A DNA stretch of 64,000 nt, taken from contig VXOG01000091.1 of assembly GCA_009840165.1 (NCBI GenBank), forward strand, positions 7,914 through 71,913, read 5' to 3'. Of this stretch, positions 58,163 through 62,757 are shown in pieces (the stretch's first letter is position 1; every line of letters begins with the position of its first letter). Origin of the DNA: Chloroflexota bacterium (GTDB taxonomy: Bacteria; Chloroflexota; Dehalococcoidia; Lucifugimonadales; UBA3495). The translations under genes were made by a program, and so were the position numbers. The notes beneath the pieces are model-generated. The model was given only the letters and a program-made list of their open reading frames with translations. It had not been told where the DNA came from and did not search any database.

Positions 58163-58417
58163 ATGACGACGCCTGAAATCGATTTCGATAAGCGCAGTGA
58201 ACTGGGCTGGAAGATCTACAACGCGAAGATTAAGAATTTGGTGGAGCCGCAGGAAAAGGGCAAGTTCCTTGTGATTGACGTTATGACGGGGGACTACGCC
58301 GTAAATCGCGACCTCATCGCAGCGGAGGATGAATTGGAAGAACGGCAACCAGACGGTGTCATTTACACGATCAGGATCGGATACCCGGCGGTTTTCAAAA
58401 TTCCCAGGATACGGTAG
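58163..58417 (+). CDS. Small hypothetical protein (84 aa), partner of DTGF protease
   Basis: Starts 7 nt after the hisH stop, with a gaggtg RBS. MTTPEIDFDKRSELGWKIYNAKIKNLVEPQEKGKFLVIDVMTGDYAVNRDL... No family recognised with certainty. Confidence 0.55.
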   Translation: MTTPEIDFDKRSELGWKIYNAKIKNLVEPQEKGKFLVIDVMTGDYAVNRDLIAAEDELEERQPDGVIYTIRIGYPAVFKIPRIR

Positions 58418-58438
58418 CGATTAAGGAGCGGATGAGCG

Positions 58439-58762
58439 GTGACCAGCGGATGGATCGGCAATAACCGGGAATTGGTAATGCCGTTGAGATTGCTTGACGT
58501 GAATGAACACGTTCATCGCATTGAAGCCAACATCGACACCGGGTTCAACGGACACCTGACACTCCCGCCGGGTTTGACACATCTGTTGGGCTTCATATCG
58601 GATAAGCCGCTGGATCTCACCATGGCAAATGACCAGACGGAAAGGTTTCCCACTTACCGAGGCATTGTTCTTTGGCACGGTCACCATCGCTCTGTCCGCA
58701 TCATCGAGTCCGAAGGCACCCCTCTGATAGGCACCCCTCTGATAGGCACCGCGCTGCTGTAG
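58439..58762 (+). CDS. Clan AA (retropepsin-like) aspartic protease, DTGF type
   Basis: 107 aa with GTG start. ...HRIEANIDTGFNGHLTLPPGL... (DTGF active-site motif). C-terminal GTPLIGTPLIGTALL. Confidence 0.65.
   Translation: MTSGWIGNNRELVMPLRLLDVNEHVHRIEANIDTGFNGHLTLPPGLTHLLGFISDKPLDLTMANDQTERFPTYRGIVLWHGHHRSVRIIESEGTPLIGTPLIGTALL
58715..58750 (+). repeat. 15-bp tandem duplication inside the protease gene
   Basis: ggcacccctctgata x2 followed by ggcacc, encoding GTPLI-GTPLI-GT. Confidence 0.9.
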
Positions 58763-58844: not shown

Positions 58845-59567
58845 ATGGAAATAATACCGGCAATCGACCTGCGCGGCGGCAACTGCGTCCGCCTGTACCA
58901 GGGCGATTACGAGCAGGAGACGGTGTTTTCCGACGACCCGCTGGGAGTCGCCGAGCGTTGGCAGGCCGAGGGCGGCCAACGCCTGCACATCGTTGACCTG
59001 GACGGCGCGCACTCGGGCAATCCCGCCAACCTGGCTGCCATCACCGCCATCACGCGCACCCTGACCATACCGGTGCAGGTGGGCGGTGGCATCCGCAGCG
59101 CGGACACGGCGGCCGGCCTGTTCGACGCCGGCGCGGCCCGCGTGGTGGTGGGAACCGCCGCCGTCTCGAATCCCGAACTGGTGGAGGAACTGTGCCGTCG
59201 GTTCGGAAGCGAGCGGGTGGTGGTCGCGCTGGACGCCCGCGACGGCCTGGTGGCCATCCGCGGCTGGACGGAAACGTCGGCAATCACCGCCACCGACCTG
59301 GCGCAGCGCATGGCCGACCTAGGCGTGGTTCGCTTGCTCTACACCGACATTTCCCGAGACGGCACCCTGGAAGAACCCAACTACGAGGCTACGGCGGCGC
59401 TGGTGAGGGACAGCGGCTTAAGCGTCCTGTCGGCCGGCGGCGTGGGCGCGGCGGAGCATGTGGGGCGGCTGGTTCCTACGGGGGCAGAGGCGGCGATTAT
59501 TGGGCGGGCGTTGTACACGGGGGATATTACGATTGGGGAGGCGGTGGGGGCAGCGCAAAATATGTAG
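58845..59567 (+). CDS. hisA: ProFAR isomerase
   Basis: 240 aa. MEIIPAIDLRGGNCVRLYQGDY...LHIVDLDGA...VQVGGGIRS. Confidence 0.92.
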   Translation: MEIIPAIDLRGGNCVRLYQGDYEQETVFSDDPLGVAERWQAEGGQRLHIVDLDGAHSGNPANLAAITAITRTLTIPVQVGGGIRSADTAAGLFDAGAARVVVGTAAVSNPELVEELCRRFGSERVVVALDARDGLVAIRGWTETSAITATDLAQRMADLGVVRLLYTDISRDGTLEEPNYEATAALVRDSGLSVLSAGGVGAAEHVGRLVPTGAEAAIIGRALYTGDITIGEAVGAAQNM

Positions 59568-59592: not shown

Positions 59593-59623
59593 CCAGCAAA
59601 CTATCAGATTTCAGGAGTATCTT

Positions 59624-60913
59624 ATGGCTTTTCCAATTCCCATTGTCATAGGACTAGTTGTTGCTGGAGCTGCCGGTGCGGTTGGCACTGCTATTAGATG
59701 GAGGGCAGGCAGGAGAAGGCGACAGCAGGAAAACGCTCGTCAGGATCAAACACGAACGCATCGTCCTGGCAATAGCAATACGCCTGTTACCGAACAACGG
59801 GGTAGTCAACAAGGACCAGGCCGGCAGCGGCAGCCTCATGCCCGTGCTGGTCAACGCCCAGTGAGACAAGGAAAGACCATATCGGAGCGCAGACGCCCAT
59901 ATAGGCCGCAACCGCGTAGGTTTCCAGATTACGACAAGCAATCTCTAGTTAAAGCCTTGGACACAGCTATTGCGAATGCCGCAGGCAATACCATTGATAC
60001 AGTTCTGTCAAAATTGCCATCTAACCAGATGTCAAGGCGCGAGCAGATCAATACAGTACGAAGCAAAGTCGATGCCATGCGGTCGGCGTTACGCGCGTTG
60101 CGGATGCCTGATTATGATGATGACATCACCGCTGCCGCTTACTTGCTAGAATATCATCCCCAGCACGTTGGCATGGCACACGCAGTGATGAGCCGAGTGC
60201 TACAGTCGCGCAACTCCGGTAAGATGATTGATGACGATACTGGACGACTCCATGTCGTGGATTTAGCTAGCGGTACACTAGCAATGCAATTCGGTGTTGC
60301 TATCACAGTTGCCGATGCGCTTATCAGAGGCGAAAGCGTCGGAGGAGTGGCTATAGATTCGGTCGACATTAGTTCAGCCATGTTAAAAGCTGGGCAGACG
60401 GCTTGGGAAAACTTCGCTACTGCTGTCCAGCACGACGAAAACTTGGAAGCCTTGGCTGAGGCTTGCCACCTCATAACGTTCAATACTCACACTCGGCATA
60501 GCACCGTACCATCGCATGAAGGGGAATGCTGGCTAAGTTGCCTGCACGGGGTATATCAGCAGAACAGCAGTAACCTCGAGCGCACTTTACACGCCCTGCA
60601 CGACGAACACCACCCCATCGTTGGGATGATGTCCTGCTGGGGACGCACACCTGAGGATCAGAACGTTGAAATCGCGAGACGCATATCACCTTTCCAAGGC
60701 ACTAGCTGGCGGTCTGATAGGGTTTTCCTTCCCATGCGAGCAGAATACCCTATCCCATTCCTGTTCAATCGTGAAGAACCTGACGCAATAGAGACCGGGA
60801 AGATCGGGCATCAATATGGAATACTCTATAGTGAGTACCCAGGATTCCTTTGGCGTCCCACGGACACAGCACTGCTGACTTACTACCGGAGTTTTTCTGA
60901 CCGTGACAGCTGA
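59624..60913 (+). CDS. Membrane-anchored protein with basic disordered linker and Rsm22-like/class-I methyltransferase-like domain (tentative)
   Basis: 429 aa from ATG 59624 (aggag RBS). TM MAFPIPIVIGLVVAGAAGAVGTAI, then an Arg/Gln-rich stretch of about 80 aa, then AAAYLLEYHPQHVGMAHAVMSRVL...LHVVDLASGTLAMQFGV...DSVDISSAMLKAG. The ORF-track extension back to 59192 overlaps hisA and is rejected. Confidence 0.5.
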   Translation: MAFPIPIVIGLVVAGAAGAVGTAIRWRAGRRRRQQENARQDQTRTHRPGNSNTPVTEQRGSQQGPGRQRQPHARAGQRPVRQGKTISERRRPYRPQPRRFPDYDKQSLVKALDTAIANAAGNTIDTVLSKLPSNQMSRREQINTVRSKVDAMRSALRALRMPDYDDDITAAAYLLEYHPQHVGMAHAVMSRVLQSRNSGKMIDDDTGRLHVVDLASGTLAMQFGVAITVADALIRGESVGGVAIDSVDISSAMLKAGQTAWENFATAVQHDENLEALAEACHLITFNTHTRHSTVPSHEGECWLSCLHGVYQQNSSNLERTLHALHDEHHPIVGMMSCWGRTPEDQNVEIARRISPFQGTSWRSDRVFLPMRAEYPIPFLFNREEPDAIETGKIGHQYGILYSEYPGFLWRPTDTALLTYYRSFSDRDS

Positions 60914-61844
60914 TAGCCAGCTTTCCCTGCTCCCTGTCAACGATGTCGCTGTCGACACCGTAGGTCCGTCACGTCCCATTCGCATCGGCCATGCCGACGT
61001 CGACTACGCTCCCGCCCGTGAAATCCTAACCCGTGCCACCGGGTTCATGGACGCCTACGACTTCACTCTGAACCCGTACAGCGGCTGCTCATTCGGTTGC
61101 GCTTACTGTTATGCTGCCTTTTTCAGCCGGAACGAGGAAAAGCGCGATTCGTGGGGCGAGTGGGTAAATGTCAAGGAGAATGCTGTTGCATTGATGGCCA
61201 AGCGCAGGCCCGGCTCCCTGGACGGCAAGCTCATCTACATGAGCAGCGTCACCGACCCCTACCAGCCGGTGGAGCGGGAGTTGAATCTGACCCGTGGCAT
61301 TCTGGAAATCATGGCGGAACGGCACAAGCCCAAGCTGGTCGTCCAAACGCGCAGCCCGTTGGTAGCGCGCGATTGCGATCTGCTCCGCCAGATTGAGGAT
61401 AAAGGTGGCCGTGTTCAGGTCAACATGACCGTTACCACAGACGACGAGGACATACGCCGCAAATTTGAACCTTACTGCCCAGGGAATCACCGCCGGCTAG
61501 AGGCCACCAAAGAGGTGCAGGCCGCCGGAATTGACACCTGCATCACGATGACGCCGCTGCTGCTGGTCAACAACAACGGCGACTTTGCTGACGAGCTAAT
61601 TGGCACTGGGGTGACCAAGTTCATCGCGCAGCCGTTCCATTTTGTACGGGGCAAGTTTGTGGCGAGCACGCGCGAGGGCGCGCTCTCCCTGATGGCTGAA
61701 AAATTGGGCTGCGGACGGGATGATTTCGGGCCAGAGTACCTGGGACGGTATCAGGAGTTCTTTGAGATTCTGAACAACCGATTGCTCGACAATGGCCTGC
61801 CCCCACTGGGCGAGGGCAAAGATGGGTTCGCGCCACCCTTCTGA
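60903..61844 (+). CDS. Radical SAM protein, SplB/PA0069-like (COG1533-type)
   Basis: 313 aa with GTG start, overlapping the upstream gene by 11 nt. YDFTLNPYSGCSFGCAYCYAAFF (CxxxCxxC); SSVTDPYQP; VVQTRSPL. Confidence 0.75.
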   Translation: MTADSQLSLLPVNDVAVDTVGPSRPIRIGHADVDYAPAREILTRATGFMDAYDFTLNPYSGCSFGCAYCYAAFFSRNEEKRDSWGEWVNVKENAVALMAKRRPGSLDGKLIYMSSVTDPYQPVERELNLTRGILEIMAERHKPKLVVQTRSPLVARDCDLLRQIEDKGGRVQVNMTVTTDDEDIRRKFEPYCPGNHRRLEATKEVQAAGIDTCITMTPLLLVNNNGDFADELIGTGVTKFIAQPFHFVRGKFVASTREGALSLMAEKLGCGRDDFGPEYLGRYQEFFEILNNRLLDNGLPPLGEGKDGFAPPF

Positions 61845-61957: not shown

Positions 61958-62191
61958 TCAGTCGGCGGTCGCGGCGGCCGGTTCCGTCGTCTCGGTTCCT
62001 TTGGCGGCAAGCTGGCGGGCCGCGTGCGTTTGCTCGTGGTCGAAGTAGTTGGCGAGCATTGACTCGCCTACTGCCCGGTCTTCGGCATCGTTGGACTGTA
62101 GCAGGTAGATGCAGTCCTGGTACAAGCCAGCGGCAAAGTCGGGGTTATTGCGTATATCCTCTCGGACAAGTTCGCGAAAATCACGCGCCAT
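61958..62191 (-). CDS. Small antitoxin-like protein, copy 2 (77 aa)
   Basis: MARDFRELVREDIRNNPDFAAGLYQDCIYLLQSNDAEDRAVGESMLANYF... Paralogue of 62205..62429. Confidence 0.5.
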   Translation of the reverse strand: MARDFRELVREDIRNNPDFAAGLYQDCIYLLQSNDAEDRAVGESMLANYFDHEQTHAARQLAAKGTETTEPAAATAD

Positions 62192-62204
62192 GGTTTGCTT
62201 CTCG

Positions 62205-62429
62205 CTAGTTAGCGGCATTGCTCGCCGGCTCGACAGGAGTGTCGGCTTCCAGCCGCGCCGCGCGCAATGCGTCTGCGCCGAAGTAGTTGCGCAGCATGGA
62301 CTCGCCATCACGCCGGTCTTCGACGTCGCTTGACTGCAACAGGTCGGTACAGTATTGGTACAGCCCGTTGCCGAAATCACTGTCCGCTGCGATGCGTTCT
62401 TTGATAAATTCCCGATAGTCCCGTGTCAT
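62205..62429 (-). CDS. Small antitoxin-like protein, copy 1 (74 aa)
   Basis: aggaggg RBS. MTRDYREFIKERIAADSDFGNGLYQYCTDLLQSSDVEDRRDGESMLRNYF... Lies 25 nt downstream of the toxin gene. No HTH recognisable. Confidence 0.5.
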   Translation of the reverse strand: MTRDYREFIKERIAADSDFGNGLYQYCTDLLQSSDVEDRRDGESMLRNYFGADALRAARLEADTPVEPASNAAN

Positions 62430-62454
62430 AAGCCCTCCTGGCCCGAGCACAGCC

Positions 62455-62757
62455 CTATTGGTAACTCTGCCACACTTGATAGGCTCTTTCAATATCTCTG
62501 CGCTGGCTGGATTTGTCGCCGCCGCCCAGCAGGATGATTAATGCAGGGCCATCCCTAGCGAAGTAAATTCGTACTCCGCCACCGTAGGTTTCCCGACGCT
62601 CGTGAACACCGGGAAACCCTCTAATTGGACTGTGATGGCCCAAGTTGCCATCCCGCATACGGTCGATAGACCGCGCCACACGATTTGCGATGGACTGGTC
62701 CAAAGTGCGATGCCAAGTCTCAAACTGCGCTGTGGTGCGTACTTCGTACTGCATCAA
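62455..62757 (-). CDS. RelE/ParE-superfamily addiction-module killer protein (HI1419-type)
   Basis: 100 aa. FETWHRTLDQSIANRVARSIDRMRDGNLGHHSPIRGFPGVHERRETYGGGVRIYFARDGPALIILLGGGDKSSQRRDIERA. Confidence 0.75.
   Translation of the reverse strand: MMQYEVRTTAQFETWHRTLDQSIANRVARSIDRMRDGNLGHHSPIRGFPGVHERRETYGGGVRIYFARDGPALIILLGGGDKSSQRRDIERAYQVWQSYQ

Follow-up and report, generated by a model that had tools for sequence, protein, structure and literature searches.

Two overlapping genes directly behind hisA, one for a membrane-anchored methyltransferase-fold protein and one for a radical S-adenosylmethionine (SAM) enzyme, raise the question of whether their pairing is more than chance and, if so, what the two products might do together. 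They lie on the forward strand of a 64-kb stretch of a Chloroflexota bacterium (assembly GCA_009840165.1, contig VXOG01000091.1, positions 7,914 to 71,913), which we call the window and in whose numbering positions are given. A first-pass annotation, made from the letters alone, had proposed the two protein types and had suspected an acquired accessory or defence-type islet. Based on the results below, gene 1 and gene 2 form a translationally coupled two-gene module. We tentatively favour reading it as an obligate two-component, nucleic-acid-directed radical SAM system of an accessory, conflict type (defence or anti-defence), a reading in which our confidence is limited.

A coupled gene pair and its helicase-fused sister

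Gene 1 (59624..60913, + strand, 429 amino acids) begins with an ATG located 6 nt behind a Shine-Dalgarno-like AGGAG (59613..59617, + strand), which falls in the 56-nt spacer following the end of hisA at 59567, and ends with a TGA at 60911-60913. Gene 2 (60903..61844, + strand, 313 amino acids) begins with a GTG ahead of this stop, giving an overlap of 11 nt (60903..60913, + strand). Both open reading frames (ORFs) and the overlap were recovered as first described, and the peptides quoted at the time all occur in the gene 1 translation. The database gene calls on the source contig are shorter, with 318 aa for gene 1 and 265 aa for gene 2. Since homologues of 430 aa (gene 1) and 313 aa (gene 2) align at 100% coverage and the identical 11-nt overlap is found in three distinct relatives (L001/L002, L003 and L005), we conclude that the long forms are the real ones.

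The gene 1 family, hereafter the partner, was used as a profile in a scan covering one genome per species, which returned 39 loci: 35 in Dehalococcoidia, two labelled Chloroflexi/Chloroflexota, one in Acidimicrobiia and one in Latescibacterota. The radical SAM gene comes directly after the partner in about 35 of them, the exceptions being a contig end, one locus without the radical SAM gene and two with altered order. Across those loci, the radical SAM proteins are 60-89% identical and the partners 25-84%; with values of 25-38%, the partner diverges far faster than the radical SAM protein. Overall, the partner was found directly upstream of the radical SAM gene in 57 loci including the window, almost all of them in Dehalococcoidia, and in nearly all 57 no more than about 200 nt separate its stop codon from the radical SAM core. 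Three radical SAM homologues picked at random had the partner upstream as well (3/3). Chance adjacency of the pair is ruled out by these locus counts, and clustering of the neighbouring genes in the 39 genome loci and in 72 loci of the sister type described below (L061-L132) yielded no third conserved gene. The two genes are thus conserved as neighbours beyond the window, as the first-pass annotation had supposed. The pairing is near-universal, not absolute, because three sister-type loci (L061, L064 and L072) carry the radical SAM gene without a detectable partner. The location of the pair differs among relatives. One Dehalococcoidia chromosome (OZ253670.1, 4.72 Mb) carries the pair twice, as L016 and L032, at record positions of approximately 0.90 and 4.72 Mb; on the circular molecule this is a distance of about 0.9 Mb.

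Scanning metagenomes with a profile of the radical SAM protein returned 80 loci at 51-73% identity, with the partner upstream in 10 and downstream in 58, while 9 were cut by contig ends and 3 had no partner. In the 58 downstream-type loci, the partner domain makes up the first approximately 320 residues of an ORF of about 825 aa that comes after the radical SAM stop; it starts 33-176 nt past this stop in 57 cases and overlaps by 22 nt in the remaining one (L063). The rest of the ORF is a UvrD/REP helicase of superfamily 1 (SF1; PF00580 at 1e-19 to 1e-24), in which the motifs GPAGCGKS and DEFQD are invariant. An hhalign comparison of the two partner families gave 99.5% probability and an E-value of 4e-22 over 283 columns, and BLASTP of the window gene 1 against one helicase fusion gave 8e-8. 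The window pair is a helicase-less branch of a widespread two-gene module. As a side observation, in one of the partnerless loci (L061, 4366-6648, - strand) a gene for a 760-aa UvrD/PcrA-like helicase without a methyltransferase-fold domain converges on the 3′ end of the radical SAM gene; this vicinity may be due to chance.

The fusion protein has 442 homologues at E <= 1e-20, which NCBI names ‘UvrD-helicase domain-containing protein’ and which occur in the genera Algoriphagus, Chryseobacterium, Niabella, Dyadobacter, Arcicella, Flavobacterium and Mucilaginibacter. A fusion query was 71-93% identical to all of these homologues, which span several classes of Bacteroidota, and 73-93% identity is seen across the named genera. 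In dozens of assemblies, the fusion module sits on contigs of only 3.4-4.5 kb, a length close to that of the two genes together; such short, module-only contigs are expected of a repeated or mobile cassette at whose borders assembly stops. High identity across classes and module-only contigs therefore speak for horizontal spread. On the conjugative plasmid pRUNSL02 of Runella slithyformis, the module is placed between a relaxase gene plus a helix-turn-helix/HipA locus and IS21 plus tra genes. In chromosomes, it is adjoined by an integrase gene (Flavobacterium), a relaxase gene and a type I restriction-modification system (Dyadobacter), AIPR/Z1/Vsr and integrase genes (Mucilaginibacter), SMODS, HEPN and HsdM genes (Algoriphagus) or, in a fifth Bacteroidota chromosome, ArdC, resolvase, integrase and TraG genes. 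Judged by guilt-by-association, the sister module would be cargo of mobile elements and defence islands.

The two proteins of the Runella plasmid (WP_013931222 and WP_013931221) are annotated merely as ‘radical SAM protein’ and ‘UvrD-helicase domain-containing protein’. Their module shares with the window pair full-length homology of the partner domain, tight gene coupling and the lack of a third gene, and its radical SAM protein is 51-60% identical with C192 (see below) kept. Its gene order is the reverse of that in the window, its partner ends in an SF1 helicase of roughly 500 aa with intact Walker A and DEFQD motifs, and a membrane anchor is missing. With both branches, a clade of thousands of sequences in the SplB lineage, near-universally accompanied by one partner family, is now defined. 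The apparent requirement for a partner alongside an SplB-type radical SAM enzyme is new, as is the architecture of the module. Curated libraries (Pfam, NCBIfam, PADLOC) contain no model for the partner or for the exact radical SAM subfamily, and a literature search found no paper describing a pair of a radical SAM enzyme and a methyltransferase-fold protein of this kind; the earlier remark that no described system pairs the two still stands. A loosely comparable case is C10P/C10Q of CC-1065 biosynthesis, where a radical SAM enzyme and the methyltransferase-fold product of the adjacent gene act together. C10P, however, is of the HemN type, a small molecule serves as substrate, and the proteins are unrelated in sequence to the window pair.

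The radical SAM enzyme and its methyltransferase-fold partner

Gene 2 is a member of the radical SAM superfamily: the suggested search with hidden Markov models matched PF04055 (E-value of 3e-12, 47.3 bits against a gathering threshold of 29.5), and the cluster motif CxxxCxxC lies at 61086..61109 (+ strand; CSFGCAYC, residues 62-69). Its best NCBIfam matches agree with the proposed SplB/PA0069 type, namely PA0069 (NF033668; 127 bits, cut-off 360, positions 40-226 of a 348-position profile), rSAM_mob_pairB (TIGR04470; 100 bits, cut-off 410) and the Rv2578c family (NF038135; 89 bits, cut-off 430). Spore photoproduct lyase scored 29.7 bits with TIGR04070 (cut-off 400) and 14.4 bits with PF20903 (cut-off 27), and mobile pair A (TIGR04471) reached 11.7 bits on gene 2 itself (cut-off 355). 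Since all NCBIfam scores are below their cut-offs, we place gene 2 in the SplB/COG1533 lineage yet outside its curated families. The best-scoring curated relatives, PA0069, Rv2578c and mobile pair B, are uncharacterised SplB-like proteins, and only the N-terminal two-thirds aligns with gene 2. Mobile pair B, going by its name, has a tie to mobile elements, but its partner is a second radical SAM protein (pair A) and not a methyltransferase-fold protein. Spore photoproduct lyase (SplB) shares with gene 2 the COG1533 lineage, a CxxxCxxC near the N-terminus and a partial TIM barrel, the alignment covering gene 2 residues 53-232; unlike gene 2, it works alone, without a methyltransferase-fold partner. 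To our knowledge, no other enzyme of the large COG1533 ‘DNA repair photolyase’ lineage has a known reaction; spore photoproduct lyase acts directly on DNA.

More than 5000 homologues of gene 2 were found, with identities of 68-91% among the best 120 when the window's own 265-aa call is disregarded, and mean column identity over 31 diverse sequences is 63%. C62, C66 and C69 of the cluster motif and C192 (motif EPxCPxN) are invariant in 124 sequences from both clades. An auxiliary Fe-S cluster was considered and rejected: beyond CxxxCxxC only C192 is universal, and a further cluster is unlikely because C213 is only mostly and the clade-specific C270 only locally conserved. In PADLOC-DB v2, gene 2 had only weak, DUF5131-like matches; the entries matched weakly include PDC-M41B (3.5e-4), PDC-M30B and pVip.

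More distant branches of the lineage have a recognisable context. A 39%-identical homologue (L133) on an S. saprophyticus plasmid (NZ_CP022057, 16988-17749) is flanked on one side by a 2OG-Fe(II) oxygenase gene and on the other by genes for a DNA glycosylase, an Ada-domain protein and a methylated-DNA-protein-cysteine methyltransferase, and this branch may have a role in alkylation repair. Rv2578c is bound by LexA in M. tuberculosis (PMC3381160), and COG1533 ‘SplB’ is a recurrent, LexA-regulated SOS gene (PMC8565304). Together with the Staphylococcus context, these data point to DNA repair for those distant branches.

For gene 1, a transmembrane helix, a basic disordered linker and a methyltransferase-like domain had been proposed, and hydropathy, composition, predicted local distance difference test (pLDDT) values and Foldseek agree with all three. 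The N-terminal helix (residues 1-25, 59624..59698, + strand) has a mean Kyte-Doolittle hydropathy of 2.18 over 19-residue windows and is kept in 21/21 close homologues. The Arg/Gln/Pro-rich linker follows (residues 26-99, 59699..59920, + strand); counted over residues 26-100 (about 75 aa), it contains 20 Arg, 12 Gln and 8 Pro and has a net charge of +17. Residues 1-94 have a pLDDT below 50 in an AlphaFold model based on 20 sequences, and an alignment of the close homologues (n = 23, 49-78% identical, the window's own 318-aa call aside) shows that the linker varies in both length and sequence. The class-I methyltransferase-fold domain (59921..60910, + strand) includes motif I VVDLASGTLAMQFG and the post-I motif DSVDIS. 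The 20-sequence model of gene 1 (pLDDT 67) was superseded by a 100-sequence model, in which the 330-aa domain has a pLDDT of 93.5 and a predicted template modelling score (pTM) of 0.92, with strands at residues 109-115, 142-148, 185-190, 202-208, 234-240, 264-270 and 316-322. Foldseek found 42 PDB matches for this model at E <= 1e-3, nearly all of them methyltransferases. At the level of predicted structure, a class-I SAM-dependent methyltransferase fold with a Rossmann-like alternating beta/alpha core is confirmed.

The top Foldseek matches were 8css_7, 8csr_7 and 8csp_7, in each case chain 7, with template modelling (TM) scores of 0.43-0.44. These entries derive from METTL17-tagged human mitoribosome assembly intermediates (PMC9892005), and chain 7 is probably METTL17, judged from its length and fold. 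Further matches were GRAS domains, histamine N-methyltransferase, Hen1, a DUF185 protein, RNMT (cap N7), RlmA(I) and RmtB, and a viral structure library returned generic methyltransferases only. Gene 1 shares with METTL17/Rsm22 and class-I methyltransferases the seven-stranded Rossmann-like fold and an N-terminal helical bundle, but the TM scores are low and it shows no four-cysteine Fe4S4 site. The proposal that the domain is Rsm22-like could therefore not be maintained beyond this weak structural resemblance, since PF09243 was matched neither by gene 1 (E <= 1) nor by 100 family members (E <= 0.01). Residues 100-429 matched no model in Pfam, NCBIfam or PADLOC, and none of the 100 sampled family members falls in a curated family; the family of gene 1 is uncatalogued in these libraries. 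PDB sequence searches with either protein, or with a profile of either, also gave no match. A link to reverse transcriptases by way of RT_UG35 was rejected. Partner-family members matched this PADLOC-DB v2 profile, like C3a159, only weakly, and the RT_UG35 matches (11-13 bits) are explained by generic methyltransferase similarity because they are confined to the motif I-II region at the N-terminus of the profile.

A profile search of 1.84 billion representatives (E <= 1e-3) gave 451 representative clusters for the partner family, whose members are mostly soluble proteins of 300-330 aa. In 100 diverse members, D213, G217, D248 and H308 are invariant or nearly so; D213 and G217 are the aspartate and glycine of motif I, D248 is the acidic post-I residue and H308 is the histidine after strand 4. 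The atypical glycine loop noticed at first sight is indeed present: the window reads ASGTL (within DLASGTL), compared with GCGxL in the family consensus VVDFGCGxLAMQFG.

What varies most among partners is the tail. The basic linker, to which the first-pass annotation gave weight, is present in gene 1 but is not a conserved feature of the family, as the combination of N-terminal anchor and basic linker was found in 2 of the best 150 of the 451 representative clusters. Given this rarity and the predominance of soluble members of about 310 aa, we prefer to see in it one localisation tail among several. In a mirror image of the window protein, one partner (L006) has the domain first, followed by a Gln/Ser-rich linker and a C-terminal membrane helix. 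In another (L008, 2667-4922; 751 aa), the glycine loop is the canonical GAGTG and the domain continues into an Arg/Pro-rich linker with four S1 domains behind it; in this locus a gene of the AAA-ATPase_like/PDDEXK_9 type comes after the radical SAM gene. A 389-aa family member (P0272) carries a C-terminal GreA/GreB domain (PF01272 at 1e-22). A small beta-domain tail was seen in 11 of the best 150 representatives; four of eight tested tails match a PcrA/UvrD Tudor model weakly, below threshold (5e-4 to 0.12), and one beta-domain tail weakly matches a MutS2/Smr-associated SH3 model. Two of the best 150 end with a long charged coil and a basic hydrophobic tip. The GreA/GreB and Tudor-like tails suggest recruitment to RNA polymerase in some members, and the tails in general may be interchangeable localisation modules.

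What the pair might do

We infer a physical complex of the two proteins and, for this complex, a substrate, a chemistry and a biological role. According to the reading favoured here, gene 1 and gene 2 would encode an obligate, co-translated two-component enzyme acting on nucleic acid, most likely DNA. The chemistry would be performed by the gene 2 product, modelled on spore photoproduct lyase: SAM would be cleaved at a [4Fe-4S] cluster and the resulting 5′-deoxyadenosyl radical would attack a base or sugar, with C192 as a candidate catalytic residue. The methyltransferase-fold partner, which seems to keep the SAM-binding motif I and the acidic post-I residue, would supply substrate recognition, localisation and possibly methyl transfer. 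Its variable tail, be it a UvrD helicase, S1 repeats, a GreA/GreB C-terminal domain, a Tudor-like domain or a membrane anchor, would set the work site, and the membrane helix and long basic tether of the window protein would keep the enzyme on the inner side of the membrane. DNA is favoured as substrate because of the UvrD helicase fusion and the SplB lineage. A nucleic-acid substrate had initially been suggested from the basic tether and the type of radical SAM enzyme; the UvrD helicase, S1 and GreA/GreB C-terminal fusions of the relatives strengthen this suggestion and are the first concrete hint of the substrate. A conflict role is favoured because of the mobile and defence-island context, the combination of a fast-evolving partner with a frozen catalytic subunit, and the swapping of tails. 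The accessory character of the window pair rests on its position in the lowest-GC stretch of the window, the adjoining RelE/ParE locus (both described below), its shifting location among relatives and the genome with two copies.

A more far-reaching possibility, and one we hold with greater doubt, is that the pair and its helicase-fused sister represent a new class of mobile conflict system. The enzyme would then alter invader DNA or transcription complexes (defence) or, alternatively, the DNA of its own carrier element (anti-restriction). The fast-evolving partner would aim it via swappable tails, and the membrane-tethered form of the window would act where foreign DNA enters. Should a defence or anti-defence role be true, radical chemistry on polymer DNA would join the known repertoire. 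The fusions make the system testable in cultured Bacteroidota (Runella, Flavobacterium, Algoriphagus, Dyadobacter).

Several observations weigh against a conflict role or against the proposed mechanism. The glycine loop of the window protein appears degenerate, so SAM binding by gene 1 is not assured. In PADLOC-DB v2, gene 1 had no match and no known defence system was matched, and the partner family was not found in IMG/VR viral contigs. The pair contains no nuclease or other obvious effector. The radical SAM protein is unusually conserved for a defence gene, and a repair or housekeeping function fits this at least as well. Further, the pair seems common in Dehalococcoidia and, since it also occupies the same locus in the closest relative of the window (L012, a contig of a Dehalococcoidia metagenome-assembled genome, JAJDWF010000043), it may be vertically inherited there. 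A membrane anchor is odd for a DNA enzyme, and the defence-island context belongs to the sister clade, not to the window's own.

The main rival is direct reversal of DNA damage, which we rate not far behind the favoured reading, though less likely than not. Here, the radical SAM enzyme would repair a base lesion or crosslink, and the partner would recognise or flip the lesion and recruit the enzyme to DNA, to stalled RNA polymerase or, in the window, to membrane-proximal DNA. This fits a lineage that includes spore photoproduct lyase, PA0069 and Rv2578c, the LexA/SOS regulation of relatives, the alkylation-repair-type gene cluster around the distant Staphylococcus homologue, the fusion with a UvrD-type repair helicase, the RNA-polymerase-binding tails (GreA/GreB C-terminal domain and, weakly, PcrA/UvrD Tudor) and the very high conservation of the radical SAM protein; if true, it would amount to a new direct-reversal pathway spread by plasmids. 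However, gene 2 is far under the spore photoproduct lyase cut-off (30 vs 400 bits), and the Bacteroidota LexA motifs within 300 nt upstream of the sister radical SAM genes are unconvincing, with CTAA-N5-TTAG not enriched (3/72) and GGA-N5-TCC in 4/72. The modules are found in mobile-element and defence-island contexts rather than in repair operons, and the fast divergence of the partner would be unexpected in a lesion reader. The structural matches of the partner, headed by the METTL17 (Rsm22-type) chain and including Hen1, RNMT, RlmA(I) and RmtB, would instead suit RNA modification, in which the radical SAM enzyme makes a C-C or C-H change on rRNA, tRNA or nascent RNA and the partner methylates it. 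Four S1 RNA-binding domains on one partner (L008) would fit, and RNA-polymerase-binding tails could position a partner on nascent RNA. Nevertheless, we consider this improbable: the TM scores are low (0.3-0.45), membership by sequence in Rsm22 or RNA methyltransferase families was not found, the dominant fusion is a helicase of the UvrD/REP SF1A type, and a mobile context and patchy, movable location are unusual for such genes.

The fusions also bear on two proposals with other kinds of substrate. Prokaryotic viperins (pVip) are likewise highly conserved radical SAM enzymes carried as accessory or defence cargo, and the window pair could by analogy turn a free nucleotide into a polymerase-poisoning analogue, the partner binding the nucleotide or delivering the product; a GreA/GreB C-terminal tail would then presumably sit at the RNA polymerase secondary channel. 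Apart from the defence-type precedent, there are weak pVip and viperin matches (E 0.03-0.13), but the viperin score of gene 2 is noise (NF038283; 11.4 bits, cut-off 180). In addition, pVip belongs to an unrelated radical SAM lineage, uses free nucleotides and needs no methyltransferase-fold partner, whereas the spore photoproduct lyase lineage acts on polymer DNA and the helicase and S1 fusions favour a polymer substrate, all of which makes this route very unlikely. Even less probable, in our view, is that the partner is a protein substrate or scaffold of the radical SAM enzyme, or that the pair works on a membrane lipid or cofactor. The membrane anchor of the window variant and of some relatives, the degenerate glycine loop in the window clade and the frequent modification of a neighbouring gene's product by radical SAM enzymes are consistent with it; on the other hand, the family is mostly soluble, D213, G217 and D248 hardly vary, if at all, across 100 members, and the fusions indicate nucleic acid. 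A nucleic-acid-directed system of conflict type thus remains the reading we favour.

A phage origin was also considered and rejected on the grounds that the partner is missing from IMG/VR, where a lone, partnerless, 44%-identical radical SAM homologue belongs to a replication-type module (L051, 4938-5867; IMG/VR UViG 3300027327_000038). GenBank phages gave nothing beyond weak matches. The radical SAM gene of L051 is located just downstream of an 833-aa ORF, two more ORFs come after it, and by eye the three look like helicase, primase and nuclease.

The locus within the window

The first-pass annotation had noted a lower GC content after hisA, and windowed values of GC and of GC at third codon positions (GC3) bear out a compositional islet. 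GC of the pair is 0.552 compared with 0.621 for the whole window, and the pair is its lowest-GC 2.2-kb stretch (0.3rd percentile), with the minimum at about 59500. GC3 is 0.50 in gene 1 and 0.72 in gene 2 vs 0.82-0.91 in hisH, hisA, the cobalamin adenosyltransferase gene and the gene for a luciferase-like oxidoreductase (LLM). The islet is not recent, however: in L012 the pair has the same position between hisA and LLM, and it is therefore no very recent arrival. Proteins flanking the pair in L012 are 92-98% identical to those of the window and the gene order matches (adenosyltransferase, hisH, hisA, gene 1, gene 2, a gap, LLM), but gene 1 is just 78% and gene 2 87-89% identical. L012 lacks the toxin-antitoxin locus and the two small ORFs that separate hisH from hisA in the window, or has something else in their place. 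The pair evolves faster than its neighbours and sits among variable inserts. In distant relatives, it is located elsewhere, preceded by SGL, cupin, CoA-binding and DUF4058 genes and followed by DUF5615/DUF433, DUF1800 and DUF1501 genes.

The neighbours named at the outset were verified by family models: hisA matches PF00977 (1e-82), LLM matches PF00296 (4e-35), and the RelE/ParE toxin gene (62455-62757, - strand) matches TIGR02683 (89 bits, cut-off 63). Downstream of gene 2, the opposite-strand toxin-antitoxin locus (61958-62757) comes before the LLM gene. In this locus, the toxin gene is followed by two tandem antitoxin-like paralogues (- strand, starts at about 62429 and 62191), which are mutually 49% identical and matched no family model. 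A 430-aa ORF occupies the corresponding position in L012. The two small ORFs between hisH and hisA (58163-58762) encode 84 and 107 aa at a GC of 0.51 and 0.55, and the second has a weak likeness to clan AA aspartic proteases (TIGR03698, 31.6 bits, below the cut-off). In L012, hisH abuts hisA without these ORFs, which look like a small inserted cassette splitting the his operon of the window.

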